From: a virus | IMG/VR virus record: IMGVR_UViG_3300009376_000001 | Length of the DNA: 64,000 nucleotides | Strand: one strand, 5' to 3' | In this document: piece by piece, positions 4,250-31,892 of the stretch | Layout: every line of letters starts with the position of its first letter | Numbering within the stretch: the stretch's first letter is position 1 | Position numbers and translations under genes: made by a program | Notes under the pieces: model-generated | The model's database searches: none | Told to the model about the DNA's origin: nothing | The model's input: only the letters and a program-made list of their open reading frames with translations

Positions 4250-4517
4250 ATTAGATGACATGCCTTCTGACATCTATTTCTGGATTAATGATGAAATAGA
4301 TGGCGGATATCTAGACCCATTTATTCAGTATTATCGAAATAAAGCTAAAGCCCGAAGTGTGGAAGAGCATCAAGAAATTTTCAAGAATAAAGAAGATTTT
4401 ATTAATGGCTTTACACTAGCAATTGCTTATTTACACCATGAAAGATTCACATTAGAAGAACTACGATGGGTACGTATTGCGATGTCGGTAGCGTTAGCTA
4501 GGGCATTGACTTCATAA
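4236..4517 (+). CDS. Hypothetical protein
   Basis: AAGGA RBS, operon packing. Confidence 0.6.
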   Translation: MDTHELDDMPSDIYFWINDEIDGGYLDPFIQYYRNKAKARSVEEHQEIFKNKEDFINGFTLAIAYLHHERFTLEELRWVRIAMSVALARALTS

Positions 4518-4534
4518 TTTACTCATGGTATACT
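4506..4534 (+). promoter_or_regulatory. Sigma70-type promoter
   Basis: TTGACT-N17-TATACT with TG extension. Confidence 0.8.
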
Positions 4535-15139: not shown

Positions 15140-15553
15140 TTATTTTTTGGCACGAGAATAGCGTTTGCTCTCCCCGCCCTTAATAGTTTGTAATTTATCT
15201 AATTCACGAAGAATTTCCTCGTGATCATCATCTGTAGCTTTCTTGGCTATAAACCCCGCTCCAGTTATAGCATCCAAAGCTTCTTCTTTATCGACATCCA
15301 TAATGACCGCACTATGGGACAATTCCTTCCCATCAGAACCGAGCGGGCGGAGAAATGTAAACATCTCTTCGAAGTACTCATTTCGCTCATCTTTAGTAAT
15401 CTGAGCGTGGAAGTTGCCAGTGGCATTCTCAGCAACTTGTCCTAAATAAGTACCTATCCCATCAAAAATAAACCATATCTCAGGATATTGGTCTTCTTCT
15501 TTTTCATCTTTATCATCATCGGCTTCTTCAGCCTTTAGTAATACGTCTTCCAT
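15140..15553 (-). CDS. Acidic hypothetical protein with N-terminal LLKA motif
   Basis: MEDVLLKAEE; TAATG coupling to upstream gene. Confidence 0.7.
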   Translation of the reverse strand: MEDVLLKAEEADDDKDEKEEDQYPEIWFIFDGIGTYLGQVAENATGNFHAQITKDERNEYFEEMFTFLRPLGSDGKELSHSAVIMDVDKEEALDAITGAGFIAKKATDDDHEEILRELDKLQTIKGGESKRYSRAKK

Positions 15554-15846
15554 TATAGCCCACCTTGCTTCTTTACTAATTCTCTAGCATCGTCAACTGG
15601 CATAATCTGTCCGATACCATGAGGATTCCGATGTATGACATTTAAGAAACCAAATAATTCGCTAGAAGGCATTGGGCCGTCATTTTCTTCAGCCCAAATA
15701 CTATCTGCAGCTTTAAAATCAGACTCTAACATCTCTTTAACACCTTCATGTTTAGAAAGAATCTTTCGATTACCTAAAACTACAGCATCTAATTCTAATT
15801 CAGCATCAAAATTTTTAATACTAGTTAATACCCATACGTCTGCCAT
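15553..15846 (-). CDS. Small protein downstream of kinase 1 (candidate immunity/regulator)
   Basis: GGAG RBS, own promoter; VVLGNRKILSK motif shared with the N-terminus of 28348-30339. Confidence 0.7.
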   Translation of the reverse strand: MADVWVLTSIKNFDAELELDAVVLGNRKILSKHEGVKEMLESDFKAADSIWAEENDGPMPSSELFGFLNVIHRNPHGIGQIMPVDDARELVKKQGGL

Positions 15847-15878
15847 AATTATACACTCCGAGATTTGATAGTACTAGT

Positions 15879-15908
15879 AGTATAACATAAAATACTACTA
15901 TAAGTCAA
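15879..15908 (-). promoter_or_regulatory. Sigma70-type promoter
   Basis: Reverse complement TTGACT-N18-TATACT with TG extension. Confidence 0.75.
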
Positions 15909-15910
15909 TG

Positions 15911-18649
15911 CTACCGTATACGGGGATCATTAAAATCTATGCCCATATCGGAGTCTTCATCGTCATCATCAAAATCATATGCTGACTGTCCACTAGGTCT
16001 AGAGCTAGACCGTCTACGTAAGTCATCAGAGGAAGGTTCTACATCTTCATCAACATCATCTAACTCTGCATCATCTGAAGGCGATCCAGCAGAAGCTCTC
16101 TCCGCACGAGGTACTGACTGTCCTCTACTAGGCTGAGCAGCACTGGCTGCGCCTACAGGCTCCGGTTCTGGCTCAGGTTCTGGAGTAGGTGTCTGTTGTC
16201 TAGGTGCTGATTGTCCACCTAATCCTCTTTCTGCATCGGGGTCATTAACATTAAGTGCGTCTTCCTCTATATTCGGCCTATTGCCTTCATCTTGTTGTGC
16301 TCCTTCTCGCTCTCGTAGTTGTCTTGCTAACTCTCTATCTTCTTCATCACGTAGAGCTTGTGAAGACCACTCAGATCCATCAGAAGACTCTGGAGCAGAT
16401 GCTAAGTCTTCCTCTGGCATTGAAGGTTCTTGATTGGTTTGATTCCAATTAATCTCTTCTTGAGCAGATTGTTCTTGTTCTGGAGGACTAGCTTGTCCGA
16501 AACTTAGACCCCAAACCCTACCTGCTTTATCAAGAAAATCTTGTTTAAATTCTTCAATAGTACTAAGATTATTAGCCTGTCCCATTCCAAATTCTGCTTT
16601 TAGACTTTGGAATTTATCAACAGAGAAGTGGTCTTCAAAAACAGCTTCAAGCTCAGCTTTAAGGTCTTCTCTGGACAAATCTCCAGGTTTTCTACCACTA
16701 TGTTGATTACGAGAAGTTGCTCCACCCCCTGTGGTAGCCATTAACTGCCCACGATTACTAGCTGACCTGGTAGGATCTCCATAATGTGCAAAATCTGAGC
16801 CGAATCCGCTGTCAATCTGGATACCTCTTCCGTTACTATCTACCATCCAGTTACCTGAATGTCTGTCCCAGTTTCCTGTTAACCAGTCATTAATCATCAT
16901 TTTATGCATATCATTACGGAAACCTTCATTGGCATACAAGCCTGACTTATTATTGTGGTTTCCCATATTTACACAATTAGGTTTACAGAACTCTTGGAGA
17001 TGTCCTCCACCACTAGCGATTGCATTACGTAAAGCTGTAGTTTGGGCATCATTAGGACTTAAACCTAATTTTTCAGCAATAGCATCAGCGGATATATTAC
17101 GGTTAATTGCAGTATCAGAGTTAATATTTAAATTAAATATCTTATCAATAGCTTCAGAAACTAATTCAGCCTTTTGCTCATTCTTTACGATTTTATATAC
17201 TACTTCAGAACCGTCATTAAGTTTTAAAGCTATTACTACACCTTCTTGGGCGTTGATACCGCCACCTAGCAATCGTGCTTCGGCGATATCACTATCATTA
17301 ACAGCTTTTAATCTTTCGTGATTAGCTTTTACTTCATCAGAAACACCATGTTTTTCGAACAAACTAACAGCTGCGTCTGCAAATTCCTGATTTATCTTCC
17401 TAGCTGCTGCTTGTTCTGCTTCTGACGGCCCTTCGTCCGGTTGACCTCTTCCTCCTCTCCGTTGTCTTCTTCGGAATAGGTCTTCAACACGCCGTACTTG
17501 TCTTGGATCTCTACGAGCAGGCTCTCGTCGTACAGGTGCGCCTTCTTGGTGAGGTTCTGGGCCTTCTTGTGCCAAACTGCCTTCGGCACCACGAGAAGCT
17601 GCACCAATATGAGGTCTTCTACCACGCATACCCAATGGGTCAGTGTGTGTCCATCGAGCTAATCGGCGGTTAGCTACATCCTCATCACTTATTTCCCCAA
17701 AAGTAATAATCATGGGGTCTTTACGACCTGGAGGCAAACTGATCATTTGTCCCTTTTCTCGTAGTTCTTGTTCCATAGAACCAACAATCCACGGGACTTT
17801 AGGGATTCTAACTAAATGAGCTACTGCTCCTCCGTGCTTATCAAATAATGCCCTATCACGGCGATTCTCACGGCCTGGACGACGAATATTGCCTCCCGCA
17901 GGCATACGTACTATTTCTCCCTTACGTACTTCTGCTTTAGGAACAGCTATAAAACGACGAGCATATATGTTCTGTTTTAGACGAACTCGTTTACCATCTG
18001 GTGTAATACGAGAACTACGTAGGAATTTCTTTGCCTTCTCTCCCTTCTTTAAGTCCATAAAGTTAGGAGCAGCCGGATTACCTTTAGCGTCTTCCCATAA
18101 GCCGTCAATATCATCAAGCTTAGTATCATGTTGTTCATTAAGAATATTACGGATTTCTATAGCTTGACGGTCAAGAACATGTTCCCACTCTTCCGTGCCA
18201 TCTTTTAGACGCTCTGCACGGTCCATATATTCCTGAAGCATGTTCCATTTATCCTGTTTGAACCCTGCATAAGGAATAAAATACGGAAGTTCTCCCATAT
18301 TAATCATGTCAATCATCTGATTGTAGCGATTGTGAATAACATGAGCTTCTGCCCGATATTCATTTAATTTGACTATCAAGTCAGAAAGTTCCTGTTTGGA
18401 CATATTCTGCATTTCTTCTTTAGTAAGGCCCGCACCAGGGAACATGCGTTTAGGATTTACCCAACGAATGGCTCTGGTAACCATAGGACGAGGAACTTTA
18501 CGATGAATAGTCCTATACATAGGAACTAGATGAGGATATCTAGCATGCGCTAATTGCAGTAGTCCTTTCGTAAGAGAAGTTAACTCATTAATAGAGACTT
18601 CAACTGCAAAATCATCAATTTTATTAGTTAAATCTATCGGACTAGTCAT
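15911..18649 (-). CDS. Large multidomain protein with PI3/PI4-kinase-like (HipA-related) kinase domain
   Basis: LGGGIN..VYK..E...D...HLQEF...DWLTGNWDRHSGNWM...IDSGFG; long acidic disordered C-terminus. Confidence 0.8.
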   Translation of the reverse strand: MTSPIDLTNKIDDFAVEVSINELTSLTKGLLQLAHARYPHLVPMYRTIHRKVPRPMVTRAIRWVNPKRMFPGAGLTKEEMQNMSKQELSDLIVKLNEYRAEAHVIHNRYNQMIDMINMGELPYFIPYAGFKQDKWNMLQEYMDRAERLKDGTEEWEHVLDRQAIEIRNILNEQHDTKLDDIDGLWEDAKGNPAAPNFMDLKKGEKAKKFLRSSRITPDGKRVRLKQNIYARRFIAVPKAEVRKGEIVRMPAGGNIRRPGRENRRDRALFDKHGGAVAHLVRIPKVPWIVGSMEQELREKGQMISLPPGRKDPMIITFGEISDEDVANRRLARWTHTDPLGMRGRRPHIGAASRGAEGSLAQEGPEPHQEGAPVRREPARRDPRQVRRVEDLFRRRQRRGGRGQPDEGPSEAEQAAARKINQEFADAAVSLFEKHGVSDEVKANHERLKAVNDSDIAEARLLGGGINAQEGVVIALKLNDGSEVVYKIVKNEQKAELVSEAIDKIFNLNINSDTAINRNISADAIAEKLGLSPNDAQTTALRNAIASGGGHLQEFCKPNCVNMGNHNNKSGLYANEGFRNDMHKMMINDWLTGNWDRHSGNWMVDSNGRGIQIDSGFGSDFAHYGDPTRSASNRGQLMATTGGGATSRNQHSGRKPGDLSREDLKAELEAVFEDHFSVDKFQSLKAEFGMGQANNLSTIEEFKQDFLDKAGRVWGLSFGQASPPEQEQSAQEEINWNQTNQEPSMPEEDLASAPESSDGSEWSSQALRDEEDRELARQLREREGAQQDEGNRPNIEEDALNVNDPDAERGLGGQSAPRQQTPTPEPEPEPEPVGAASAAQPSRGQSVPRAERASAGSPSDDAELDDVDEDVEPSSDDLRRRSSSRPSGQSAYDFDDDDEDSDMGIDFNDPRIR

Positions 18650-18663
18650 AGTGACTCCATATT

Positions 18664-21600
18664 CTAGGCATCGGTCTTAAAAGCATCTGGGCTTCCATAT
18701 TCTCCACTGGAAGGAGTGGCAGATTCTGGAGGCTTAGGAGTAGATTGTGGAGCCTGTGTAGACTCTTTTTTACGAGGTTTTGCAGCTTCTCTAAAAGCTC
18801 TACCCATATGTCCAGCCAAAGAAGCAAAAGGATTACCGCCTGACTTTTCAACGTCATCAGCCTTCTGAGTGCTCCTAGGCTGTACATGACGATCGTAATC
18901 TACGCCTTCTTTAGGCTTTCTTTCTGGCTCTCCAGACTCAATTACACTGGGGGCCGGAGGAGTACCGACTCTAACATCAGGTTTCTTTCCTCCGAAAATG
19001 CCCTTTTCTAATTTCTCAATAGTATTGTCTAAATGTTTAAAAACATCAGATACTTCGGAATTAGACGTAATAGCTATCTCAGAAATATTACTATCTAATT
19101 TATGTAATATCTCAGCTATATGGACTTCTCTATCGTCCTCTGCTCTTCTAGCTTTTACTTCAGCTTCATCAGCTTTAGCTTTAGCTACACGAGCTTGAGC
19201 TTTAGCAGAGCGAGCCTTAGAATGCTGTTGCACACGCTTAGCACTCGCTACTTCATTTTCCATTGCTTTCTGATATTGGTCTTTTTGAGGAGAGGCCATT
19301 TCATTTTCTCCAGCTTTATCTATACGTGCAGGTTGTTCCCGTTGCGGTTCTTGCTCCAGATAAGCTTTGTCTCCACCAGCTTCCTGCATCCGTTGCTGCA
19401 CTGCAGCACGTTGCCCTCTTAATCGCTCTTTTTCTTCCGGTGTAGGCTCTCTTACCGGAGGTGGCGGAGGCGGTGGTGGGTCATCTGGCTCTGGTTTTGT
19501 CGTAGGTTCCGGCTCTGGCTTAGTTGTATCGTCCTTAGTAGGGCCATTTTCTTGCTGGTCACGAACAGCAGCAGCTTCTTTTCTAGAATAATATCTAGCT
19601 CGTTTTCCGTCTTTACCTCTACGCTCTGCTGTATACTCCTGAACGCCTTTAGGAGGCTGATCTCCAGGCTGTAAATATTCACGATCACTAGTAGAAACAG
19701 CTGACTGACTTTTTTCGCCAGTTTCTCTCTGCACGGTACGCATCATCGGCTGCCCATCTGGTCCTATAGCAGGATTACCTTGTGAATCCAATATAGGTTC
19801 TTGTGTCGGAGCAGATAATTCAGGTCGATCTTGAGCATGCAGTCTGGCTTCACCTTGTTCTCCCTGAGATTGTCCAGCCCCTTCACCAGATGCATCCTTA
19901 GAGCGTCCTCGCTCTCCCATCATCCGTTCACCTATGCCTGTAAGAAGTCCTCCAGCCCCTTGAACTTTCTCAGGAACATATTTTTCAATATTTTTATTTA
20001 ATTTACGCCGTAAAATATGACCACCATACCGATCTGGAAAGCCTTCCCCAGGAGGCATGGCATCTTTATTTCCTTTAACTATCTCATCAAGATGTGCTCT
20101 AACAGCGTCTAATGATACTCCAGTTTTATCACGTGCAATGGCTTCAATAGAATCCTCTGCCTTAGCAAAATCAACCATTGCTTTTTCAAGAGCATCACTA
20201 CGAGGATTAACAGGAACTTTAGCTATTATGTCATTCCCATCGTCATCCACTCCAGTACGATAATCCCGTGTGATGACATTCCCTTTGTCATCAACAGCTA
20301 CTTCAGGCATATTCATAGCCTTAGATATAGCATCATCGTATTTAGCGTCAGCACGAGCCATCATAGTGACTAATTTTCCACGTTCATTCCAATACCCACG
20401 AGGATCTTGTCTATATAATTCACTATTAGGAGCACGATATTTAACTCCACCTAGTGTATGTGCTCCAAAATATTGCCCTTTTTCCCAACCCTCGTTCCAA
20501 CCTGATGACCATGCCTTACCCCATTCGGAAAACATTCCACCTAAACCACTTTTAGCTTCGGCGTTACCTCTCCAAAAAGAACTTCCAGGCTTCTCATTAT
20601 TAGAACTATCGGCTCCATGTGTGGGATGATTAGCAACCCGCACACTACTTTCTTTCACAACTCGTTTTACATCATCGATACTTCTAACTTTTCCGCCAAG
20701 TACACTAGTAAAAATAGACTTAGCCATACCCCACGGAGAATTAGCAATTACGCTAGGAAGATCGTCTGCCTCATTTGCATCTGATACATCAAATAAATCA
20801 CTGGCATTATGTCTCAATGATTCTTCAATAAAGTTTTCATCAATACCATTTTCTTCTAAATTAGATAAACTATTCTTTTCATATTCAGCTGCAAATTTTT
20901 CTTTATCCTTTGTAGTAGGCTCCATACGGGTCATTGGCCCTCTGAAGTCCTGCTTTACATTCTCATTAAGCCATTTACGTCGATTCTTAGGGGTAACATC
21001 AACTCCTGCAAGCTGAGCATCACGGCCCATTGCTTTATCGACGATTAATTTCTCACCATTTCGGACAGCAGCACCAAAATTCTTGACTCGTTCTCCACCT
21101 TTAACAGTCTTGAATTTACCTTTACCACCTTCACGTTGCTCTATCTTGAAAGATTTACCATCAGGATTCATCTTAATACGGACTTGAATATCAACGCCTG
21201 CATCTTTACCGACGTTCATACGCAAACCATTACGAGGAAACGCTTGTCCTACTATTTCACTAGTAGACTTACCTTCCGCCACTGCCGAAGCAACCGCATC
21301 AGCTTGCTGAGCAAAGGCACTCATTAATTGTTTTACAGGCTTAGGAGGTGCGCCTTGAGTACGTTGTCTACGTCCTCCTCCCTCAGGAGCAGGTTGGTCA
21401 AAGCCCAATCCTTTCATCATGTCATTATAAATAGGTTGTAAGAAATCTAGATTCTCTCCTACTTTGACATGTTCTTTCTTTAAATTATTATAAACATCTC
21501 TTACGCCTCTAGCATAAACAGCCCGTTCTTGTTCTGCAGGAGTAAGACTATTAGGGTCAGCATTAACGAGTGCCTCACCCTCAGAACTTAATTCAAGATC

Positions 21601-21792
21601 GTCTTTCTTACGTCTAGCAGCTTTATCTAAATAATTATCAGTTATTAATGGAATGCCAGCTTCAGAATACGGAATATTAATAATATTCTCAAAACGATCA
21701 ATAACGTCATTAAGAGCAGAAAAAACTAAAAGCTCTTCCTGCTCTTTAGTAAGCAAATCTAATTTATGTAAAATTCGCTCTTCAGTCGTCAT
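18664..21792 (-). CDS. Large portal-adjacent protein, probable internal head/ejection protein
   Basis: 1042 aa, coupled to portal stop; low complexity, poly-Pro; several LxK[AGS] sites; shares YL.P...PP...RRG...YY module. Confidence 0.65.
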   Translation of the reverse strand: MTTEERILHKLDLLTKEQEELLVFSALNDVIDRFENIINIPYSEAGIPLITDNYLDKAARRKKDDLELSSEGEALVNADPNSLTPAEQERAVYARGVRDVYNNLKKEHVKVGENLDFLQPIYNDMMKGLGFDQPAPEGGGRRQRTQGAPPKPVKQLMSAFAQQADAVASAVAEGKSTSEIVGQAFPRNGLRMNVGKDAGVDIQVRIKMNPDGKSFKIEQREGGKGKFKTVKGGERVKNFGAAVRNGEKLIVDKAMGRDAQLAGVDVTPKNRRKWLNENVKQDFRGPMTRMEPTTKDKEKFAAEYEKNSLSNLEENGIDENFIEESLRHNASDLFDVSDANEADDLPSVIANSPWGMAKSIFTSVLGGKVRSIDDVKRVVKESSVRVANHPTHGADSSNNEKPGSSFWRGNAEAKSGLGGMFSEWGKAWSSGWNEGWEKGQYFGAHTLGGVKYRAPNSELYRQDPRGYWNERGKLVTMMARADAKYDDAISKAMNMPEVAVDDKGNVITRDYRTGVDDDGNDIIAKVPVNPRSDALEKAMVDFAKAEDSIEAIARDKTGVSLDAVRAHLDEIVKGNKDAMPPGEGFPDRYGGHILRRKLNKNIEKYVPEKVQGAGGLLTGIGERMMGERGRSKDASGEGAGQSQGEQGEARLHAQDRPELSAPTQEPILDSQGNPAIGPDGQPMMRTVQRETGEKSQSAVSTSDREYLQPGDQPPKGVQEYTAERRGKDGKRARYYSRKEAAAVRDQQENGPTKDDTTKPEPEPTTKPEPDDPPPPPPPPVREPTPEEKERLRGQRAAVQQRMQEAGGDKAYLEQEPQREQPARIDKAGENEMASPQKDQYQKAMENEVASAKRVQQHSKARSAKAQARVAKAKADEAEVKARRAEDDREVHIAEILHKLDSNISEIAITSNSEVSDVFKHLDNTIEKLEKGIFGGKKPDVRVGTPPAPSVIESGEPERKPKEGVDYDRHVQPRSTQKADDVEKSGGNPFASLAGHMGRAFREAAKPRKKESTQAPQSTPKPPESATPSSGEYGSPDAFKTDA

Positions 21793-23666
21793 TCTTCATC
21801 ATCTTCTGAGAGAGGAATTCCTGCTTCAGACATCTCTGGCCCAGCTATTGGCGGAGGTGCAGGTAATTGGTCTACACCAGCAGGCTGTCCTTCCGCAGGT
21901 TGTTCCTCCATTCCAGGCATCATAGCGGGAGCACCAGGAGCACCAGGTGCGCCTTCAGCCCCAGGCATTCCAGGCATACCTGGAGCTTGCTCCATCTTTT
22001 TAAATTTAAATCGAATATCTTTACCTTTTTCTTTAATAGGCTCATATCCTAACTGGAGCATCATACTAGCATTCTCAAGTCGCAGTTTTTCAATAGACAA
22101 CTGAATTTCTTCAGTCTCCTCCTGCGGAGGCTGTAGATGAATAGTCCAATCAGAAATCTCTAATTGTTTAAGCATGAATGGAATAACGTTTTCGTTAATT
22201 ACATTTTGATACGATTCAATTAATTTATTATGCATATCAGTCTGAGCAGACTCTCTAGTCAGACCGCCAACACTAGATGCATCTCCTGAGAACAGAGGAG
22301 TCACGCCCCATAGCATAGCTACACGGTCACGAATCTCCTGCCTAACAGGTAGATAGTCCAGTTCTTGGAAGGTATATGCTAACTTAACGAAGTCAGTTTT
22401 ACCTCGATTATTTCTAGCCGATGCTGCAACCCACGGGAACGTATTCGGGTCATTAAGCATTTGAGTCTTAATACGCTCGATTTCCGTTTCTAAGGATTCA
22501 GGATCATCGGTATAAGTAATTAATAACCCCGGTGGAATTCTCCGTTCATACCAGTATCTATAGAGCGTCCTGTCTGCCCCTACAAGGGACAGAACTTTCT
22601 CAAAGACTGTAAGAACGGGAGAATATCCATAAGTTTTAGATGGATTAAAGAAAGAGGCGTGACAGATTTCATCAGCTAGATAGTAACGATAACGTCCACG
22701 CCAATAATACCTAAACATAGCTGGCAGTAAGGTAGCGTTACAACGGAACCCTTCTGCCGCTACTACATCGCACTTGCCAGGAGATGTGTGAGTCTGTTGC
22801 TCTCTATGAATAGGACATAAGAAATGAGAACGTTCTGGTAGACCGTCTTTCCTATCTATATCATATTCAGTTAAAGCCGGATGTAATCGGGTGACTTCAA
22901 AAATCTTTGATTTACTAATTTTCCCAGTTACTGGGTCTATTTCATATTCTTTGTTAAATAGTAAGAAGCCATCATCCGCAATTAAAATGTCTGTCATAAA
23001 CTCATTTAAGACATCTAAGAGCGACTGATGGAAACTATTGGCATTACCGATTAATACATCAAATGATTTTTGTTGGGTAAAATCGGGAATACTAGTCCCT
23101 ACAGGAACTTTATCCCCAGTTTGTGAATCTCTTTTATATCTACGTACATTTTTAGTGATGATTTCATCGTATTCTTTGTCATAGACTTCTTGTTGTACTA
23201 TTTCAAAAGCAAAACAAGAATCACAATGTTCATCTTCATCTTCTTCAAATTCTTTACCACATTGAACACATTTACGAACATATTTTTGTTGCCAGTTAGA
23301 AAAGCCTTTACGGAAAACTTCACGCAATATTGCTAATACAACTGAGCGTATCTCAGTAACTTGATAGGCTAATACGTAAAGATCTTGTAATATGCTACGT
23401 CGATAAATAAATTGTTGGCGAACCCAGTCTTGAATAATTGCATCAAGACCCAAAGGAGACATACGTCCCGTGGCACCATTAGCACCTTGAGCCGTTTCCG
23501 CAGCCTTAACCAACGAATCTAATGTACCTATTAGTCCATTAACTCGTTGATATTGGTCTAAATTACTAGGAATTTCGCCAGCTGCTAAATTACGACTAGC
23601 CAATGAGGCAGCCCCAGGACTACCTGGCTCTCCGAACACACCAGCTAATGAATCAACTAAACCCAT
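21789..23666 (-). CDS. Portal protein with Cys-rich insertions
   Basis: Directly after terL; EICH...YGYSPV...PPGLL...DYLPVRQEIRDRVAMLWGVTP portal core; Pro/Gly/Met-rich tail. Confidence 0.85.
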   Translation of the reverse strand: MGLVDSLAGVFGEPGSPGAASLASRNLAAGEIPSNLDQYQRVNGLIGTLDSLVKAAETAQGANGATGRMSPLGLDAIIQDWVRQQFIYRRSILQDLYVLAYQVTEIRSVVLAILREVFRKGFSNWQQKYVRKCVQCGKEFEEDEDEHCDSCFAFEIVQQEVYDKEYDEIITKNVRRYKRDSQTGDKVPVGTSIPDFTQQKSFDVLIGNANSFHQSLLDVLNEFMTDILIADDGFLLFNKEYEIDPVTGKISKSKIFEVTRLHPALTEYDIDRKDGLPERSHFLCPIHREQQTHTSPGKCDVVAAEGFRCNATLLPAMFRYYWRGRYRYYLADEICHASFFNPSKTYGYSPVLTVFEKVLSLVGADRTLYRYWYERRIPPGLLITYTDDPESLETEIERIKTQMLNDPNTFPWVAASARNNRGKTDFVKLAYTFQELDYLPVRQEIRDRVAMLWGVTPLFSGDASSVGGLTRESAQTDMHNKLIESYQNVINENVIPFMLKQLEISDWTIHLQPPQEETEEIQLSIEKLRLENASMMLQLGYEPIKEKGKDIRFKFKKMEQAPGMPGMPGAEGAPGAPGAPAMMPGMEEQPAEGQPAGVDQLPAPPPIAGPEMSEAGIPLSEDDEE

Positions 23667-25633
23667 TAAATCGTTCCTATTATTTCTTTTAGTGAGTATT
23701 CATCGGGTGCACGAGAAATTACCCAATCTGAACCTTGTTTTTCCCATTTAGAAGCACAAACCAAACACATTCGCCAATATGCTTCCTCATTATCAAAGAC
23801 TCTATTTTGTAATTCGTCAGTATATTCTATACCACCGACACGGTTACATACAACACATATATCAGAACTGCTACTAACTATGCGTTCTTGGACAGCATCG
23901 CGTCCCCACCCTGCATTAGTGGGAGTTTTTAAAGGATTTCTTGCTTTTTCATTTTGAGATGTTTGATTATTATTAGGATTTTCAAAAAATCCATTAACTC
24001 CACCCATACTTCGCATACTAGTAAGAGTACTATGTTCTTTTAATACACCATGAACCGCTCCTACTACCGCATCTGCTCGATCTTTCTTCATTCCTGGCCT
24101 AGCTTCGATTTTATCTCCATAAACAACATCTAAGCCAAGAATCTCTTCTATAGTCTCTTTATCAAAATATCCATCTAATTTTTCTTGATAAATTAAATCC
24201 TTAAAAGTATCGTAAGCTTCACGACTACTTCTACCTATAGATTTATATTTAGCAGGAATACCAAATTTAGCTAACGTCTGTAACGAACTAACGGACTGAT
24301 AGTTATCATACGTTACGCTAACAATTCGGTATCCTTTATCACGTAAGCCTAAGATGAAATTTTCAATAGAGGAAAAATCTACATCATATTCAGGATCAGG
24401 TTCCCAAATCTTTATTAAATCAATTATTACATGTTCTTCGCCCTGATGAGCGATACAGACAGCAGCATTAGCATGTCTTAATCCTAAGTCAACGTGAATA
24501 AAGTATTTAATTCCCGCCTGTAGACCAGCTTCTTCTCTAATTTCTTTCAATCTAGCCCAAGTTATTTGACCTACTTCATCTATATCTGCGTCAAATGCAC
24601 GTAGAATAGGCAATGAATCTTTTATATATGCATCCCGTGCAAATGGAGGGTCACATTCATAACGAGCACGAGCTAGAACAGGATCCGTTTCATAAAAATC
24701 AATAAAGTCTTCTTTCTTCTTAGAAGGATTAAACTCCCAAGTGGCAAAAGGCGTACCTCCTTCTTTACAAGAAACAAAGGTACGATTCTCTGTCTTACCA
24801 TTGGTAAACCGTCGTTGAATAAATGATCCCTTAAAACGAGGCCAAGATAAACAGATAACCTTACCAACACCTGGGAAACGAGACTGAATCAAAGCCTTAG
24901 CGGTGTTATACACACCTTCGGCTCCCTCACTACGCAAAGAATGACTACGTTGTAGCTCTTGTTCACTCTTAAATGCATCAATCTCATCAAGAATAATCAA
25001 GATAGGGGTATAACCCTGCCAAGACTCATTTTCAGAGTTACCCGAAATAAGGCGTATATTCTTAGGAAATGTAACAGTCTGCTGAGTAATACGAGAGGAA
25101 ATATACTGAGGTAAAGTATCGTCAGTAAATAAAGGAGCACTACGTAAAATATTAGACAAAGTGCTGAAGTAAATGTTACGGGCGATATCCGCATTCTGGG
25201 CCACATTTATCGAATCAATAAAGCTGTTACTGTCCATCCCAAAATATACTTGAGGATTCTTAAGACAGTGAAGTAAATACACTATACGTAAACCAATTAA
25301 TATAGAACACGTATCCTTACCAGAGCCTTGACCTGCCATTAACACACTTTCAGTAAAGAAAGGCGGGTCAAATATATTAGATGTGTTATAAACAAAATCA
25401 ATCTGAGGCTGAGACAGTCTCATAGTTAGATTCAAATACTCTTCGCCATAGAGAAAAGTTTCTAAATCAACTGGAGTAAAACTCCAAATATCATCTTCGG
25501 ACTCGCTAACAGTATCCTCAGTAGCTACAAGACTAGGATCGTTAAGCAGAGAGCCTAGTATTGTAAAGTCTACCAAGGGCTGTGAGTTTGACTCCGAGCC
25601 TTTGGAGGGTTTCTTGGTCTGTAACTTCTTCAC
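23666..25633 (-). CDS. terL: Terminase large subunit
   Basis: Walker A GQGSGKD, Walker B IILDEID, LSWPR motif III, RNase H-like HVDLG...YDNYQS...KDRADAV; C-terminal CxxC...CxxC; true start may lie a few codons downstream. Confidence 0.9.
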   Translation of the reverse strand: MKKLQTKKPSKGSESNSQPLVDFTILGSLLNDPSLVATEDTVSESEDDIWSFTPVDLETFLYGEEYLNLTMRLSQPQIDFVYNTSNIFDPPFFTESVLMAGQGSGKDTCSILIGLRIVYLLHCLKNPQVYFGMDSNSFIDSINVAQNADIARNIYFSTLSNILRSAPLFTDDTLPQYISSRITQQTVTFPKNIRLISGNSENESWQGYTPILIILDEIDAFKSEQELQRSHSLRSEGAEGVYNTAKALIQSRFPGVGKVICLSWPRFKGSFIQRRFTNGKTENRTFVSCKEGGTPFATWEFNPSKKKEDFIDFYETDPVLARARYECDPPFARDAYIKDSLPILRAFDADIDEVGQITWARLKEIREEAGLQAGIKYFIHVDLGLRHANAAVCIAHQGEEHVIIDLIKIWEPDPEYDVDFSSIENFILGLRDKGYRIVSVTYDNYQSVSSLQTLAKFGIPAKYKSIGRSSREAYDTFKDLIYQEKLDGYFDKETIEEILGLDVVYGDKIEARPGMKKDRADAVVGAVHGVLKEHSTLTSMRSMGGVNGFFENPNNNQTSQNEKARNPLKTPTNAGWGRDAVQERIVSSSSDICVVCNRVGGIEYTDELQNRVFDNEEAYWRMCLVCASKWEKQGSDWVISRAPDEYSLKEIIGTI

Positions 25634-26117
25634 GTATTATCTTCGCAACATCTAATAAAAATTCTTGAGATAAATCCGCACCTAACAGTGCTACTTGTCC
25701 TTTTAGACTTTCTAGGTATGCATCAGTTGCTTGTTTTTTATCTTTAAATTTAATGTTGTCATTTAAAAGAGCATCTTGAGCAACATTGGTAACTAATTTA
25801 TATCCCTCTAATAATCTATCCGTGGCCTCCTGATTAAGATCAGCAGGTGTAATATCATAAATAGAGTCTTCTTTCTTTTCTATAGCCTGAAGGGCTGTAG
25901 GGAAGGCATCTTCGCCTATTATCAACGTTTCCGGCAGTACATCCCACTGCTCCGTGAATTGCCAAGTAGTGAGCAACTCAAGCGGTACGCCAAGTTGCTC
26001 ACTAATCTCTAAGAGTTCGGATCCTCGTTCATAGAGCTTTTTTGCTTCTTCACGGAGTTTTTCCGTCCAGTCTTCTTGGGAGTTTCCTTTAGACTTTCCA
26101 TTATTTGTTCCTGCCAT
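25542..26117 (-). CDS. Probable terminase small subunit
   Basis: N-terminal HTH (AKKLYERG.EL.EISEQLGVP...TW..W); immediately upstream of terL. Confidence 0.7.
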   Translation of the reverse strand: MAGTNNGKSKGNSQEDWTEKLREEAKKLYERGSELLEISEQLGVPLELLTTWQFTEQWDVLPETLIIGEDAFPTALQAIEKKEDSIYDITPADLNQEATDRLLEGYKLVTNVAQDALLNDNIKFKDKKQATDAYLESLKGQVALLGADLSQEFLLDVAKIIREEVTDQETLQRLGVKLTALGRLYNTRLSA

Positions 26118-26350
26118 GTATCTATCACCGTCGAAGCATATTCTTTAGTAATGGGCGGTTGACTATCATTAGCATGCAAAGAACGATTAATTTGGGGTAT
26201 TGCGTCTAATAGACCATTTACCCACTCATTGAATTCTCCAATATCATCAAATGCAATGATAGGTGCAGGACAAACTAAAGCAACACGTCCTGTGAACGGG
26301 TCTACCATTAACGAAAAATCGTCATCACCATATTCAGGATATTTCGGCAT
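26009..26350 (-). CDS. Hypothetical protein
   Basis: GGAG RBS; extended -10 TGATATAAT upstream. Confidence 0.6.
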   Translation of the reverse strand: MPKYPEYGDDDFSLMVDPFTGRVALVCPAPIIAFDDIGEFNEWVNGLLDAIPQINRSLHANDSQPPITKEYASTVIDTWQEQIMESLKETPKKTGRKNSVKKQKSSMNEDPNS

Positions 26351-26400
26351 CTTATCTCCATATTATATCAAATTATTAAATATTTAGGTAATTTTAAAAA

Positions 26401-26829
26401 TTATCTTTGAGCTTGTGCTACTTTTGCCCAATCTATAGCATTCTCACGCCAACGATGTGCAAAAGTTTTACATCTAGGAACCTCCTTTCGTTCCAGTTCA
26501 TCAAATGCTACTGTCCAATCTATATATAAATTCTCATTATGTTTAACTTTATCGCATGTTGTAGGGTCTATAAAGTACTTACAACGTTCTTCTAAGCACT
26601 GAAATTCTTTAGTCTCTTCAGCATTATAACTACCACATACTGCTAAAACTTGTTTAGTATGTGGACTACGAGCAGTAGTAGCCTCTATTTTAATGGATTT
26701 AAACGCACATTGCCCTGTATATTCATCAGTTTTACCAATTGGCTTAAATCCAGGTTTATTTTCCATATGATGAACTTCCTTTAAAGGAAGCCAATTTTTG
26801 CACTCAGTAATATTGCAATAAACCGTCAC
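26401..26829 (-). CDS. Cys-rich protein (DUF1540-like repeats)
   Basis: VYCNITECKNW...C...C.SY; second repeat C.EERCKY...C...C.TF. Confidence 0.6.
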   Translation of the reverse strand: MTVYCNITECKNWLPLKEVHHMENKPGFKPIGKTDEYTGQCAFKSIKIEATTARSPHTKQVLAVCGSYNAEETKEFQCLEERCKYFIDPTTCDKVKHNENLYIDWTVAFDELERKEVPRCKTFAHRWRENAIDWAKVAQAQR

Positions 26830-27131
26830 TCTTGTTCCACCTTTTTCTCTTTAATAGTATCTACTAATTTTCGTGACCATCCTACAAACCACTCATATTT
26901 AGAATTACTTGTAGAAAATTCACTTAATTGTCTAAAAACATCAATAGCTATAAGTTCTATATCTTTTTGAATACCTTTACCTCGTAAAAATGAAACTATA
27001 CTAAGTCTAGTTAAGGCTGAAAAAACAGACGGTGTAGGGTATTCATACACTGTTATAGTTTCAAGTATATGACATAAGATGTTTTCAACATCTATTGTAG
27101 TTAATTCAACTTCTTTAATAGTACGTGGCAC
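26826..27131 (-). CDS. Hypothetical protein
   Basis: GGAGGG RBS before GTG start. Confidence 0.6.
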   Translation of the reverse strand: MPRTIKEVELTTIDVENILCHILETITVYEYPTPSVFSALTRLSIVSFLRGKGIQKDIELIAIDVFRQLSEFSTSNSKYEWFVGWSRKLVDTIKEKKVEQE

Positions 27132-27186
27132 AAATCCCCTCCAACCCGCACAGGATGCTTAATACTATAACATAATAATATATTAT

Positions 27187-27966
27187 TTAGACCTTACTAT
27201 TTAATGTACTGTAGGAAGGAAGACCATCTATTATTTCTACTTCATAATCCGCAAATAAATTAGGCCACCGTTCTATTGCTGTTTCTGCCACTTTAGAGAA
27301 AACAACACGAATTTCTTCTTCTGCCCAAGGTTTAGTACGCATTTCAATAACATGTCGTAAAGTACGCATATTACACGACCACCCTATATTAGTGGCTAAA
27401 CCAATAGGTGCTATACGACGCATAGCAGAAGTAATTTCCTTTTTAATATCAAATTGATTAGTATCGTCTAATTCATATATCTCTGCTAAATCTTTCTGAA
27501 GGTTAGAAAGACCTTCCATAGTCTTAGTAAAGATATGCATTGCATTCTCATTTTCTTGAATGCACACAGGAGCATACCAATCTAAATCAGTTAACCGTAC
27601 AAAACGTAGGGATTCTTGCGACATAGCCGTTCCTACACGATGACGTACTAATTCATGCGTAAAAACACGACTAACATCGCAGAAAAAGAAATTAACTACT
27701 CCATGTTCTAAAACAGACCCATCCCCTTTTGCTATAACATTAGAAATATAAGCTTCATTTGAATTACGAACACGAGTGAGATTAGGGTTTAAATCAGTAC
27801 CAAATGACTTATAGCATGCCCTACCGTATACCTCAGTTAAAAGTTCTATATCAGTAGGAGCGTTAGAAGTCCACTCTGGTACGCCCAAATGATTAAGGAA
27901 GGCACTAAGTCCTTCCTTATTCACAGTTGATTCGCCGATTAGAAAAACCTTAGGTTCTACAATCAT
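27187..27966 (-). CDS. thyX: Flavin-dependent thymidylate synthase
   Basis: GRACYKS, SVLEH, VSRVFTHELVRHR...SQESLR ThyX motif, EIR. Confidence 0.95.
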   Translation of the reverse strand: MIVEPKVFLIGESTVNKEGLSAFLNHLGVPEWTSNAPTDIELLTEVYGRACYKSFGTDLNPNLTRVRNSNEAYISNVIAKGDGSVLEHGVVNFFFCDVSRVFTHELVRHRVGTAMSQESLRFVRLTDLDWYAPVCIQENENAMHIFTKTMEGLSNLQKDLAEIYELDDTNQFDIKKEITSAMRRIAPIGLATNIGWSCNMRTLRHVIEMRTKPWAEEEIRVVFSKVAETAIERWPNLFADYEVEIIDGLPSYSTLNSKV

Positions 27967-28169
27967 TAAGTACTACGTCGCCTATCTAAAAATGCCTCAA
28001 ACTCTTCATCAGTCATCATACCTAATTGTTGCTCAGGCGTAAGCTCAGGAACATAGTCTTCATCGTCATCAGGATCAGTCTCATCTTCATCTGCACTGGT
28101 ATCTACTAATTCTTCTGAATAATGAACTGTATCAAATAGGTCTTGTAAAGCTTTATTGTCCTGAGTCAT
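27966..28169 (-). CDS. Very acidic small protein
   Basis: AGGAG RBS; 23 of 67 residues D/E. Confidence 0.65.
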   Translation of the reverse strand: MTQDNKALQDLFDTVHYSEELVDTSADEDETDPDDDEDYVPELTPEQQLGMMTDEEFEAFLDRRRST

Positions 28170-28189
28170 ACGTTCTCCTATTACCCTGC

Positions 28190-28219
28190 ATTATACCCTA
28201 AATACTATTCCGAAGTCAA
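28190..28219 (-). promoter_or_regulatory. Sigma70-type promoter for acidic protein-thyX
   Basis: Reverse complement TTGACT-N18-TATAAT. Confidence 0.75.
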
Positions 28220-28348
28220 TACTTTTCGGGCTTCTCGTCGTTCTTTTCTACGCTTATCGGCATCACATGGGCCACACAATGCAGGCAAATATCGCTTTGA
28301 CTGCTTACGTCCACACTTCTGACACTTCTTCCAGCTTGTAGGAGCCAC
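28205..28348 (-). CDS. 47-aa basic Zn-finger protein, not in ORF track
   Basis: GTG overlapping topoisomerase stop (TAGTG): MAPTSWKKCQKCGRKQSKRYLPALCGPCDADKRRKERREARKVLTSE*. Confidence 0.6.
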   Translation of the reverse strand: MAPTSWKKCQKCGRKQSKRYLPALCGPCDADKRRKERREARKVLTSE

Positions 28349-30339
28349 TATTTCTTCTTCCTCTTAACAGGTTTACGCTTGCCTTTGGCTTTAACCGGAG
28401 CCTTATCTTTATTCTTTAACTTTTGCTGAGCAACTTTAACATCAGCTGCAGGGAACCTAGAACGTAATAGCTTATCTACATCCCCATCAAATGAAATATC
28501 CCAATCTTTAAAAACTTGAGGATCAATATATTGAGCTACACAAACTTGTTTAGTATTACTTAATTGGTCTGAAATAGGCTCACCAATTACATCTAATTTA
28601 AGTTTATTACGTTCTTTTAATGCCCATAAAAAAGCTTCTTCTTTCCACTCTTGGGCATTAGTAATAGCTCCGTTATTAACCCGTCGCTTCATGAAAGCAT
28701 CAAATTTCTTTCTATCTAACTTAGGTATCTTAGTCTTCGACACTAAATCGGCTGCTAATCGAGTAGCATGATAAGTACGGAAGTTCTTTACACTAAAATC
28801 ACCATCCGCTGCTTGCTTTAAATAAGCATTAACCGCAGGAGGACTAACATTTAGCACCGTAGCTGTCTTATCTTTACCTGCTGCTTTACGGCGAGCAATC
28901 AATTCATTCTTAACTAATGGGTCAGTAACTTCCACATTATTTAATTTACCGGATTTACCTAAGAAATTAAGATAAACTTTCTTACCTTTAATTATTATAT
29001 GCTGCGCCTGAAAGCTAGTTACTCCAAAAGTAGAAACATATTCTCGTATAAACTTGCCATCTTTATCTTTTTTAGGGCCAGGTCGTCCTTCTTCTCCGTC
29101 CCAAACAACTTTAGATTCACCACTACCGACTCGACGATAAGTATTATGAATCAGAGCAAGAGCTAATGCTGCTTCTTTATTACGTCCGTTATTCTGGATA
29201 TCTTGTTTACAACTCTTTTCAATACGAGAGATACTTTTAGCTAATTTTTTAATCTTCTCAAATTTCTTAATAGCTTGACCTTTAGTATGCTCTACACTGT
29301 AGCCAGCATGTTGTCGTCCTTTACCATCAATCCAAGCTACTTGAACCTTATCATCTGAATCGGTACTAAAGAATAAGTGCTGCTTGCCTCCACGGTCAGG
29401 ATTCTCTGGGTCAAACTCCTGAACGGCCTGTAATTGTCCGTCAGCGGTGGTTATATTAACCACTTTACCGTCTTCATTAACTACCGCTATATTAGGAGTA
29501 ATAGGAGTTGCATCTGTTTGTGGGCCTTTTCCTTCCAAGGCTGCCTGTCTAACTAATTCTTTTTTCTGGTCTACAGAAATTTTAGGTAATGTTTGAATTA
29601 AGTCATCTAATGGACGGAAGCCCTGTTCTTTCATTTTTGCAATAAAAGATTCAGCATCAATCTTATCGCCAATAATGCCTTGCCCTTCATTCTCGTCTTC
29701 ATCGTCATCTACGTTTTCATCAACATTTACCATTCCAACGTCTTCAGGAGCTTGTACACCTTCAATAGGTCGAGCAGCTTCTGGCTCTAAAGGACGCTCT
29801 AGTGTACCTAATTTGCCTATCTCAGAAGGAAAATATCCTCGTGCTCCACGACGAGTTGTGTGTACTTGTGTATTCTCTGGAGGTTTTTCACCAGAGCCTA
29901 AGTATTCTAATCGCTCTCCCCGTTCTGCTTTAACTAAATATTCTAAAGCAGTCTCAAGTACTAATAACTTCGATAAATCCGCACTCTTTTGTATATCAGA
30001 ATTAGTTAATTTATCTACTTGCTCATCCGTAATAAAGTACGCACGGAATACGGGATTCTGAAAGCGAGTATATGTCTGATATAAAAAGAATCCATCAGAC
30101 ATCTTGCCTTCTTCATCCGACATGCTAAGGTCTGTTCCTAGTTGCTTGGAATGCTCTTTAAAGAAAGCATCACCACTAGCTTGTAGACGTTCTCGTAGGC
30201 TTTTATCTACCCAAGATATATGATTCTCTGCCTTGGAAATGGAACGAGCGATTTCATCCGGCTCTTTAGATAGAATCTTACGAGAAGGCAAGACAATATA
30301 AGCTAAGTCTTTTTGGTTATATATAGTAACAGCAGGCAT
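28348..30339 (-). CDS. DNA topoisomerase IB (bacterial/poxviral type) fused to N-terminal extra domains
   Basis: RRVGS(R), FGVTS, FLGKSGK(K), KNFRTYHAT(R), LSNT..VC..QYIDP(N,Y) catalytic pentad; start reassigned to ATG 30339 (TAATG coupling). Confidence 0.88.
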   Translation of the reverse strand: MPAVTIYNQKDLAYIVLPSRKILSKEPDEIARSISKAENHISWVDKSLRERLQASGDAFFKEHSKQLGTDLSMSDEEGKMSDGFFLYQTYTRFQNPVFRAYFITDEQVDKLTNSDIQKSADLSKLLVLETALEYLVKAERGERLEYLGSGEKPPENTQVHTTRRGARGYFPSEIGKLGTLERPLEPEAARPIEGVQAPEDVGMVNVDENVDDDEDENEGQGIIGDKIDAESFIAKMKEQGFRPLDDLIQTLPKISVDQKKELVRQAALEGKGPQTDATPITPNIAVVNEDGKVVNITTADGQLQAVQEFDPENPDRGGKQHLFFSTDSDDKVQVAWIDGKGRQHAGYSVEHTKGQAIKKFEKIKKLAKSISRIEKSCKQDIQNNGRNKEAALALALIHNTYRRVGSGESKVVWDGEEGRPGPKKDKDGKFIREYVSTFGVTSFQAQHIIIKGKKVYLNFLGKSGKLNNVEVTDPLVKNELIARRKAAGKDKTATVLNVSPPAVNAYLKQAADGDFSVKNFRTYHATRLAADLVSKTKIPKLDRKKFDAFMKRRVNNGAITNAQEWKEEAFLWALKERNKLKLDVIGEPISDQLSNTKQVCVAQYIDPQVFKDWDISFDGDVDKLLRSRFPAADVKVAQQKLKNKDKAPVKAKGKRKPVKRKKK
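29815..29985 (-). repeat. Duplicated 57-codon leader/module, copy 2
   Basis: SADLSKLLVLETALEYLVKA...TQVHTTRRGARGYFPSEIG; 40/57 aa identical to copy 1. Confidence 0.9.
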
Positions 30340-31892
30340 TAACGACGTACTCCTTGTCTTGGCCCACCCTGTAGATGTGCAGGAGTATCGCCACCCCATC
30401 CCATTTCTCCATCATCTACCGGATCTGCACCTTTCCAATCCCTATTTCGATCCCTATCTCCAGGCTGGGAACTAACAGGGAAGCTTTCCCACCCAAATCC
30501 ATCAGGGGAGAATGGGGTTGAACCATAACCATAGCCTGCTCTTCCGCTAACAGCATCTCCCATTAATCGATTAACTTGGATTGTATATAAATTTTTAAAC
30601 CTATCGATATCTAAATTATCTGCTTCCCAATTAACTGCGCCTAAAGCAGCAGAGAGAGTATCTTCATCAAAATATTTATCAAATACATCTAGAGCTTCTT
30701 GTTCTAATCCGGTACGAATTTGTATCTTTTCTTCGTCCGTAAGAAGCTCATCCAAATGATCCCTATATCTATAAGGAAAATCTAAGCCAACATCTCTAGA
30801 AATTTCATGTAATTCGATATGTGCTGTTCGATCATGAGGGAAAGAATGAGCCATACGTCCCGCAAATCCATTATCAATAGCTAAAATCTTATGATCAGCT
30901 GTAATCATATAATTACCAGTATGCCTATCAGGATTACCTGTAATAGCATCTAATAATATAAGTTTAAGAAATTCTTCTCGCCCCTCTTTACTAGCTAACA
31001 TTTCAGCAACAGCCGAAATAGAATCATCTCTAGAAAGACAATTTTCACAAAACTCTTGAAAATGTCCGGCAGCCTGAGAACCTAAAGAATTCTCTTTTAT
31101 CTTATCGACTTCGGCTCTATCCAACCCACCTGGATCACCCCATTCGTCAACAGATGTCCCATGATCAGGATGAGTATCCGTAAATACTTTCAATAACCGC
31201 TCAGGATCTATCGAATGCGGTTGTACATACGGAACTAAATTCAACCCCAACGCTCTATCAACACTATATGCAAGCATCTCAGACCTGTTATCGCCTTTAT
31301 CATGAGAAGCTTTAAATATAAACTTTTTACCTGCTACTTCAACAGTAAAATTAGCATATGAAGTGATTCCCAGACCTGAATCCGTCGCTGAACCTTCATC
31401 TGAACCATCGGTAAATCCCGCTTTAGTTAAATTCTCAGAGGTTAAATCCGCAGGATCAATAGAACTTCCTAAGAATGGCTGATGTTCCCCAATAGCGTCC
31501 CTTAAATCCGCATACATATTTTCAAATTGGGCATTAACTTGCTCTCTAGTTGCCCAAGCCGAATCTCTCGTATCATCAGAGGAACTATCAGGAGTAACTA
31601 CTTCAATCTCTCGTTCTTCTTCAGGCAACTCAGCTAAGCGACGGACTTCTTCACGAATACCTTCTTCTGTATCAGGCGGTATAGTAAGTCTATCTAATGC
31701 GTCATCTATTTCTGTAGTGCCAACTTCAGAGGGATAATATCCACGAGCACCACGACGAGTAGTATGCACCTGTGTATCTTCTGGAGGACGTTGAGTAGGA
31801 CTAAGATACTCAAGTTTCTCCCCAGGTGTAGCTTTCAACAGATGCTCTAATACCGTCTCAAGAGTTAAAAGTTTTGTTAAATCGGTAGACAT
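30339..31892 (-). CDS. PI3/PI4-kinase-like (HipA-related) kinase with N-terminal leader module
   Basis: GLGIT...FIFK...SEMLAYSVDRALGLNLVP...HFQEF...DAITGNPDRHTGNYM...AIDNGFA. Confidence 0.85.
   Translation of the reverse strand: MSTDLTKLLTLETVLEHLLKATPGEKLEYLSPTQRPPEDTQVHTTRRGARGYYPSEVGTTEIDDALDRLTIPPDTEEGIREEVRRLAELPEEEREIEVVTPDSSSDDTRDSAWATREQVNAQFENMYADLRDAIGEHQPFLGSSIDPADLTSENLTKAGFTDGSDEGSATDSGLGITSYANFTVEVAGKKFIFKASHDKGDNRSEMLAYSVDRALGLNLVPYVQPHSIDPERLLKVFTDTHPDHGTSVDEWGDPGGLDRAEVDKIKENSLGSQAAGHFQEFCENCLSRDDSISAVAEMLASKEGREEFLKLILLDAITGNPDRHTGNYMITADHKILAIDNGFAGRMAHSFPHDRTAHIELHEISRDVGLDFPYRYRDHLDELLTDEEKIQIRTGLEQEALDVFDKYFDEDTLSAALGAVNWEADNLDIDRFKNLYTIQVNRLMGDAVSGRAGYGYGSTPFSPDGFGWESFPVSSQPGDRDRNRDWKGADPVDDGEMGWGGDTPAHLQGGPRQGVRR
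31719..31889 (-). repeat. Duplicated 57-codon leader/module, copy 1
   Basis: STDLTKLLTLETVLEHLLKA...TQVHTTRRGARGYYPSEVG. Confidence 0.9.

Follow-up and report, generated by a model that had tools for sequence, protein, structure and literature searches.

Why does the same small domain directly follow two different kinase genes in one phage genome? The question is raised by a 64,000-nucleotide stretch of viral DNA (IMG/VR record IMGVR_UViG_3300009376_000001; hereafter the window), in which two genes for HipA/PI3K-like kinases lie 14 kb apart. Kinase 1 is followed by the gene for a free-standing 97-aa protein and kinase 2 by the leader of a topoisomerase IB (topoN), and both of these products belong to one 'RKILSK' type of domain. 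The initial annotation of the window had singled out these four features and read them as two candidate kinase-immunity pairs; all four were found at the coordinates given, on the minus strand. The reading favored here, with a probability of roughly 45%, is that the small domain resembles HipS, binds the kinase core in trans and regulates its activity, probably by inhibiting it.

Phage protein kinases are few and poorly understood, and Hip kinases are known mainly as bacterial toxins, with HipS as an antitoxin. To our knowledge, every split Hip kinase reported with a HipS partner comes from a bacterial operon. HipS corresponds to N-subdomain 1 of HipA, split off as a separate protein, and neutralizes the kinase HipT from a position beside its Gly-rich loop (PMC6581861, PMC10627512). 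The HipBST systems of E. coli O127:H6 and Legionella (PDB 7ab3 and 7vkb) combine a split Hip kinase with HipS, a small alpha/beta protein that docks near the Gly-rich/P-loop and blocks ATP binding (PMC6581861, PMC10627512, PMC9325769). HipS is built from N-terminal strands, a helical subdomain and a last strand (PMC10627512, PMC9325769), and chain B of 7VKB is a 102-residue HipS antitoxin (PMC9325769). In the hipJS and hipIN operons, the kinase (HipJ or HipI) is accompanied by a downstream HipS or by HipN, which is a HipS-like domain joined to a HIRAN domain (Gerdes et al. 2021, PMC8262856).

Two paralogous kinases

Kinase 1 (15911..18649, minus strand; 912 aa) is encoded directly after the portal gene and a gene for a protein of ~1000 aa. 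Kinase 2 (30339..31892, minus strand; 517 aa) is its paralogue, with 24% identity over 207 residues (BLASTP E = 3e-15). In kinase 1, the N-terminal domain (aa 1-340) is conserved and is joined by a basic linker to the HipA/PI3K-like core (aa ~430-715), after which comes a disordered, acidic tail. Kinase 2 consists of an N-terminal 57-aa module that is shared with the topoisomerase, a linker and a HipA/PI3K-like core (aa ~150-440). Both had been said to carry intact catalytic motifs, and the translated sequences bear this out: kinase 1 has VYK...E, GHLQEFC, GNWDRHSGN and IDSGFG, and kinase 2 has IFK...E, GHFQEFC, GNPDRHTGN and IDNGFA. The HipA-family feature GNxDxHxxN with a downstream Mg-binding Asp is present in both kinases, and residues K486, E495, H550, D588, G592, N593, D595, R596, H597, N600, I612 and D613 are invariant in six kinase-1 orthologues. 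The two are read as paralogous kinases of the Ser/Thr type within the HipA/PI3K-like superfamily.

Family profiles place the kinases less sharply. Kinase 1 scores 31.1 bits against PI3_PI4_kinase (Pfam PF00454), above the gathering cut-off of 27.1 bits, and its orthologue in L001 passes with 35.6 bits; the orthologues in L019 and L005 (~26 bits) and kinase 2 (19.4 bits) lie below the cut-off. NCBIfam gives only weak SCO1664-family and UbiB matches for the kinases, and PADLOC matches kinase 2 to PDC-M03A (1e-6). The catalytic loop of kinase 1 aligns weakly with GNFDRHNGNW of CtkA (3akj; E = 0.56). On these results, HipA/PI3K-like is a fair label, but by sequence the kinases stop short of membership in the HipA family itself.

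Gly-rich stretches occur in the kinases (GGGINAQEG; GLGITSY) at a conservation too low to tell whether they correspond to the Gly-rich loop of the HipA/HipT fold, which bears the autophosphorylated Ser. In kinase 2 only ~60 residues separate the leader module from the Gly-rich stretch and kinase core, which leaves no room for a HipA-type N-subdomain 1 in cis. No helix-turn-helix (HTH) or HipB-like gene was seen adjoining either kinase.

The N-terminal domain of kinase 1 (aa 1-340; 'YPHLVPMYRT.HR..PR....RAIRWVNPKRM...') is 61-75% conserved, compared with 33-62% for the core, and is followed by the basic, Arg-rich linker. It has no family match.

Homology of the two small domains

The free-standing 'RKILSK' protein (P0001; 15553..15846, minus strand), the candidate partner of kinase 1, is encoded by a gene that begins 64 nt past the kinase 1 stop. 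The family to which it belongs comprises 29 close members and 17 representative ones, almost all of them ~100 aa long. The second copy, topoN, comprises residues 1-115 of the topoisomerase IB (29995..30339, minus strand).

The two domains are barely alike when compared directly (BLASTP E = 0.023, 15/39), and a shallow profile comparison of the small family with the topoisomerase leader gave a probability of 55%. A HMMER profile of the small family, run against 1.84 billion proteins, returned 17 representative clusters, none of them a topoisomerase. The consensus of the widened small family, 'AVVLPNRKIL', is nearer to the topoisomerase leader 'YIVLPSRKILSK' than the window's own copy is. With 15 small-family and eight topoisomerase-leader sequences, hhalign gave a probability of 93.2% (E = 3e-7) over 35 columns, and in this comparison the homology proposed by the initial annotation stands as a local one. 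The score of 43.2 compares with a mean of 11.2 (sd 2.2) and a maximum of 24.1 for 200 column-shuffled decoys. The unrelated family of the neighboring 137-aa protein gave <1% against both the small family and the topoisomerase leader.

That the hairpin is a short convergent motif, and that the two domains have neither common ancestry nor a common partner, is very improbable. Such a view would draw on the reach of the high-confidence alignment, which is limited to the ~35 columns of the 'VVLpxRKIL' hairpin and the first helix, on the failure of HMMER to link the families and on the different best PDB matches of the two structural models. Against it stand the distance between the hhalign score and the highest of the shuffled scores and the models themselves. 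The AlphaFold2 (AF2) models have a predicted local distance difference test (pLDDT) value of 87.5 for the 97-aa protein and 90.7 for topoN, and both run in the same order of elements: three strands come first, then helices, one further strand and a closing helix. In full, the 97-aa model reads strand-strand-strand-helix-helix-strand-helix, and an additional helical insert is present in the topoisomerase leader. Where helix 1 ends, the two families also align in an aromatic residue that is mostly Trp (W51 in the 97-aa protein, W43 in topoN), and in the extended alignment they align in a C-terminal 'G.M....F...NP' stretch. The 97-aa protein and topoN are taken as homologous, on the alignment for the N-terminal third and on the common topology of the models for the rest.

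Association of the small domain with the kinases

In all relatives with locus-1 context (L001-L009 and L019-L025), in which small-protein identity falls as low as 28%, the block has the same order: portal, ~1000-aa protein, kinase 1, a gap of ~70 nt and the small gene, followed by a 134-147-aa gene, a 55-aa gene and the gene for a CCA enzyme. For locus 2, a survey of IMG/VR and metagenome loci found topoN in 9/9 loci with kinase 2 directly upstream and in none of the three loci that lack kinase 2 (L012, L015 and L033). One of these, L015, has a topoisomerase body that is 77% identical to that of the window. The co-occurrence of domain and kinase expected from the initial annotation is found, the small gene always following kinase 1 and topoN tracking kinase 2, but within one syntenic phage family only. 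Both copies of the domain lie directly downstream of a kinase, and kinase 2 has no evident N-subdomain 1 of its own. The locus-1 pair is fast-evolving: identities are 28-55% for the small protein and 33-62% for the kinase-1 core, compared with 62-90% for the flanking portal, 137-aa and CCA genes.

Complex prediction for kinase 1 (aa 1-715) with the small protein gave scores of 0.59, 0.65 and 0.56, and the best of three controls gave 0.00. At least 76% of the contacts agree between runs, and the pLDDT of the partner is at least 77. As a yardstick, 58 of 80 solved complexes and 2 of 110 mismatched pairs clear the pass mark; scores of <=0.60 were obtained by only seven of those 80 complexes and by both passing mismatches. 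With 0.59 against 0.00 for the controls the pair passes, though weakly, and the predicted complex lends weak support to an interaction of kinase 1 with the small protein.

Promoter and operon of the 97-aa gene

The initial annotation gave the 97-aa gene a promoter of its own, and this promoter proves to be conserved. It is of the sigma-70 type with an extended -10 element (15879..15908, minus strand; TTGACT-N18-(TG)TTATACT) and matches 10 of 12 hexamer positions, plus the TG. In seven loci whose small proteins are 28-87% identical, both hexamers and the TG persist while the spacer around them drifts. Such a promoter would allow the small gene to be transcribed by the host RNA polymerase independently of the portal-kinase operon.

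Promoters of the type TTGACTT-N-TG.TATACT occur three times in the window, where 0.3 are expected by chance. The other two (1367-1395 and 4506-4534, plus strand) lie within the plus-strand block. All the genes at issue are on the minus strand, in a block of 54 kb, and since the small-gene promoter is the only one of its type in that block, the small gene appears to start an early-type unit. The occurrence of this promoter type otherwise only in a putative early region fits the suggestion that the small protein is made early.

The next gene of the same operon encodes an acidic 137-aa protein (15140..15553, minus strand), and its start overlaps the stop of the small gene. This protein is 76-91% identical across relatives whose small protein is 28-55% identical, a constraint so strong that it suggests a conserved target. 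No Pfam, PHROGs or PADLOC family matches it. It was tried as a third paralogue of the small domain and rejected, as hhalign gave <1% against both families.

One short contig associates the small domain with this neighbor. A single open reading frame (ORF; L018 1-765) joins the C-terminal part of a 137-aa-family protein to an FHA domain and to a small domain of the RKILSK type. The contig is 767 nt long with even GC, the order of domains is the reverse of the usual small-then-137 order, and the contig is too short to resolve the arrangement. FHA is a phospho-threonine-binding domain, and the ORF hints at phospho-threonine signaling in the small-gene operon. Because both are in one ORF, it ties the small domain to the 137-aa family rather than to the kinase.

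Possible likeness of topoN to HipS and the case against a partner

When the topoN model was compared with 48,161 PDB representatives using VIA-align, the top four matches were all HipA N-subdomain 1 or HipS chains: 4pu3_A (Shewanella HipA, residues 8-109; Z = 4.2, root-mean-square deviation (rmsd) 3.7, 78 residues aligned), 5k98_A (E. coli HipA, residues 2-109; Z = 4.1), 7vkb_B (Legionella HipS, residues 1-102; Z = 4.0) and 7ab3_B (E. coli HipS; Z = 3.7), although a Z of ~4 is under the usual noise of VIA-align and the next, unrelated matches (RRM domains) have a Z of 3.4. The four matches have rmsd values of 3.7-3.9 over 76-81 aligned residues, and the whole HipS chain is spanned. In HipS, three helices stand between strands 1-4 and strand 5, whereas the phage domain has three strands, at least two helices, a strand and a last helix. 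The aromatic residue at helix 1 of the phage domains may be analogous to Trp65 of HipS (PMC10627512). The likeness of the modeled topoN to HipS is a weak lead, notable only because the domain adjoins HipA-like kinases. Foldseek against viral structures (97-aa model only), the ESM Atlas searched by features and by shape, and second VIA-align looks at the PDB gave nothing usable, and PHROGs and PADLOC had no match for the small protein or topoN.

The low Z scores are one of several points that weigh against a HipS-like partner. For the 97-aa model, Hip chains are not listed, and the best matches are proteasome fragments (Z = 4.5). Foldseek against the PDB found no match for either model and did not reproduce the HipS lead. 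Pfam at E values up to 10 had no match for eight topoN members and none relevant for 15 small-family members, NCBIfam had none for the small protein or topoN, and PDB profile searches with both domains found no Hip chain. On the side of the kinases, HipA_C (Pfam PF07804; cut-off 30.5 bits) gave 13.3 bits (E = 0.066) for kinase 2 and no match for kinase 1. The conserved adjacency is not independent evidence because all the loci belong to one syntenic phage family. Since kinase 2 and topoN are contiguous, their joint absence can be explained by one deletion, and the two are bracketed by 70%-identical module repeats between which, for example, such a deletion could occur. The identity matrices of topoN and kinase 2 have a Pearson correlation of 0.82 and a Spearman correlation of 0.33, with L034 discordant, and so give no clean sign of co-evolution; the values for topoN and the topoisomerase body are 0.37 and 0.31. 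The promoter splits the small gene from kinase 1 and groups it with the 137-aa gene, and the kinase-first gene order differs from that of hipBST. Binding also need not mean inhibition, because HipA keeps the same subdomain within an active kinase.

A rival explanation, on balance unlikely, is that the adjacency is incidental. The small gene would then be the first of an early operon (small gene, 137-aa gene, 55-aa gene and CCA gene) that happens to abut the late portal-kinase block, and its product would work with the 137-aa protein or with a host target. In the same view a packaged topoisomerase would have topoN as its leader or pro-domain, and the domain shared by the two loci would go back to an old duplication that has no link to the kinases. 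The conserved promoter between kinase 1 and the small gene, the overlap of the small-gene stop with the start of the 137-aa gene and the domain combination in L018 are all in keeping with this explanation. So is the synteny of the whole block, which makes adjacency alone uninformative, and so is the position of topoN within an array of genes that have variable N-terminal leaders before a shared module. However, the same domain follows both of two distant paralogous kinases separated by 14 kb, which position alone would hardly bring about, and topoN was never seen without kinase 2 in the surveyed loci. The weak complex pass and the HipS lead also point to the kinase.

The original proposal that one small domain follows both kinases as their partner is thus supported in part, by the homology, the layout and the joint presence and absence, and more weakly by the complex pass and the HipS lead.

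Topoisomerase IB and the shared module

The topoisomerase IB gene (28348-30339, minus strand) starts at 30339 and not at 30399, as confirmed by homologues of 663 aa. Its product begins with topoN, continues with an internal copy of the 57-aa module (29815..29985, minus strand) and ends with an acidic linker, the topoisomerase IB catalytic domain and a Lys-rich tail (28348..29814, minus strand). Topoisom_I (Pfam PF01028) matches residues 454-578 of the 683-aa reading with 70.2 bits, compared with a cut-off of 23.7 bits. The stop of kinase 2 and the start of the topoisomerase IB gene overlap as TAATG, which agrees with the translational coupling predicted for the two genes. The module copies in kinase 2 (residues 2-58; 31719-31889) and in the topoisomerase (29815-29985) are 70% identical (E = 4e-23). 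No stand-alone topoN-like protein of 63-202 aa was found.

In relatives (L026, L029, L030, L012 and L016), the 57-aa module also heads further, different proteins. The maximum was seen in L030, where four module-bearing genes stand in tandem upstream of the topoisomerase gene (at 197, 2060, 4277 and 6355). Some proteins (P0038, P0039) have two modules, with a different body after each module. The module is followed by an acidic linker and then by a conserved motif of the 'E.EI.GVQAPE' type. A weak third copy of the module center ('EYLQPGDQPP...RRG...YY') lies inside the gene for the 1042-aa protein of the window (19588-19680, minus strand; tblastn E = 0.013).

Proposed roles: inhibitor, structural subunit or virion-borne effector

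The favored explanation, a HipS-like partner, can be put as follows. An alpha/beta domain of ~100 aa would dock in trans on the kinase core and set its activity, most likely to off, as HipS does in the hipBST, hipJS and hipIN modules. At locus 1 the domain is a free protein whose own conserved host-type promoter allows it to be made separately from the late portal-kinase operon. The locus-2 copy is translationally coupled to kinase 2 and fused before the topoisomerase IB, in parallel with HipN and its fusion of a HipS-like domain with a DNA-binding one. Since paralogous kinases are each followed by a homologous domain, duplication of a kinase-plus-partner pair would be the simplest origin. From this arrangement we infer that the domain binds and inhibits, as well as any connection with virion packaging or timing.

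The domain could also bind the kinase as a positive or structural subunit that completes the fold, chooses the substrate or escorts the kinase to the capsid, and would then be neither an inhibitor nor an immunity protein. This is improbable, although a homologous subdomain is integral to the active HipA kinase (PMC10627512), kinase 1 lies in a head-morphogenesis block and kinase 2 and the topoisomerase share a module that resembles a targeting tag. The translational coupling at locus 2 would likewise suit stoichiometric assembly. A separate host-type promoter, on the other hand, suits a factor that is made at another time than the kinase, and divergence as rapid as that of the small protein is seen more typically in antagonistic pairs. 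Where free HipS proteins have been studied, they inhibit their kinases (PMC6581861, PMC9325769).

An extension of the inhibitor reading is that the Hip-like kinases are host-takeover effectors delivered with the virion and silenced by the HipS-like domain, so that parts of a bacterial persistence module would form a time-programmed toxin-antidote pair. One copy of the domain would be resupplied from the early host-type promoter and would switch the injected kinase off on schedule, and the other would be anchored to a topoisomerase IB that is delivered alongside. We regard this scenario as improbable. A look at the literature on PI3K-like kinases in virions found nothing relevant.

Setting, neighboring genes and apparent fusions

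The window is part of the genome of an uncultured marine phage, and matching DNA occurs in marine metagenomes. The 97-aa protein is recorded on a 141-kb contig. GenBank phages gave no match, either to the DNA of the region or, at the protein level, to the region, the small protein and kinase 2. In the order of transcription, the minus-strand block contains genes for ribonucleotide reductase, kinase 2, topoisomerase IB, ThyX, terminase, portal and the 1042-aa protein, and then kinase 1, the 97-aa gene, the 137-aa gene, a 55-aa ORF and the gene for a CCA-adding enzyme.

The ThyX homologue of L012 (3887-5221; 444 aa) may carry an intein, since a faint intein-splicing match is flanked by two Thy1 matches. 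The CCA-adding/HD enzyme of L020 (10876-13218) has 780 aa, compared with 506-511 aa elsewhere, and therefore an extra domain of ~270 aa.

Two apparent fusions of the small domain were rejected. In the first (L017 100-1239, P0049), the domain is joined to a PP2C phosphatase, which could be read as a functional linkage. It is probably an assembly chimera because the GC content changes from 0.30 to 0.50 exactly at the domain boundary on a 1.4-kb contig. The second (P0041), a glycerol kinase with half a small domain, was likewise rejected as a chimera.

Relation to known systems and implications

The initial annotation called the kinase-and-partner module undescribed, which goes too far. Bacteria are already known to have split Hip kinases whose HipS or HipS-fusion partner is encoded downstream (PMC8262856), and the principle of a kinase followed by HipS is not new because hipJS and hipIN already show such layouts. 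As in those operons, the kinase gene comes first and a partner of ~100 aa lies directly downstream. Locus 1 is like hipJS in that the partner is free after the kinase, and locus 2 is like hipIN in that the partner forms the N-terminus of a protein that acts on DNA through its C-terminal part. The kinases of hipJS and hipIN have no N-subdomain 1 in cis, a likeness that in the phage was judged for kinase 2. However, hipJS and hipIN are bacterial chromosomal operons of the toxin-antitoxin-like kind and the present loci belong to an uncultured, lytic-type marine phage. The phage partner has its own promoter, and there is no sequence-level match to HipS or HipA_C. Unlike HipN, the locus-2 partner is fused not to HIRAN but to a topoisomerase IB that lies behind a shared leader module.

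HipBST resembles the phage loci in having a small alpha/beta protein beside a split Hip-type kinase, and HipS is among the best matches of the topoN model, though only at a Z of ~4. Its gene order is hipB-hipS-hipT and it includes the HTH protein HipB, whereas no HTH partner was seen here.

Among phage kinases, T7 gp0.7 acts as a Ser/Thr kinase on host proteins; it is an early product and has no dedicated partner protein. Its likeness to the kinases discussed here is by function only, as it belongs to an unrelated kinase family. In the 'Gratiaviridae' gut phages, the gene for a HipA-family kinase lies between those for the portal and the major capsid protein (Benler et al. 2021, PMC8008677). 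Kinase 1 is similar in being HipA-like and in lying in a late head-gene block next to the portal, a likeness drawn from the description and not from sequence. In contrast to the present loci, no partner was described for the 'Gratiaviridae' kinase, and the phage family and the host phylum are different.

If the HipS-like reading is right, what is new is the phage setting, the presence of two diverged pairs in one genome, the independently promoted partner and the fusion of a partner before a leader module and a topoisomerase IB. Phages would then have adopted the split-Hip design for purposes of their own and kept two kinase-plus-partner pairs in one family. The loci would provide a compact and testable case of a phage controlling a potentially self-harmful enzyme. 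Structural and inhibitor studies would also gain a new family of small candidate kinase-binding domains, which counts 17 representative clusters among 1.84 billion proteins.

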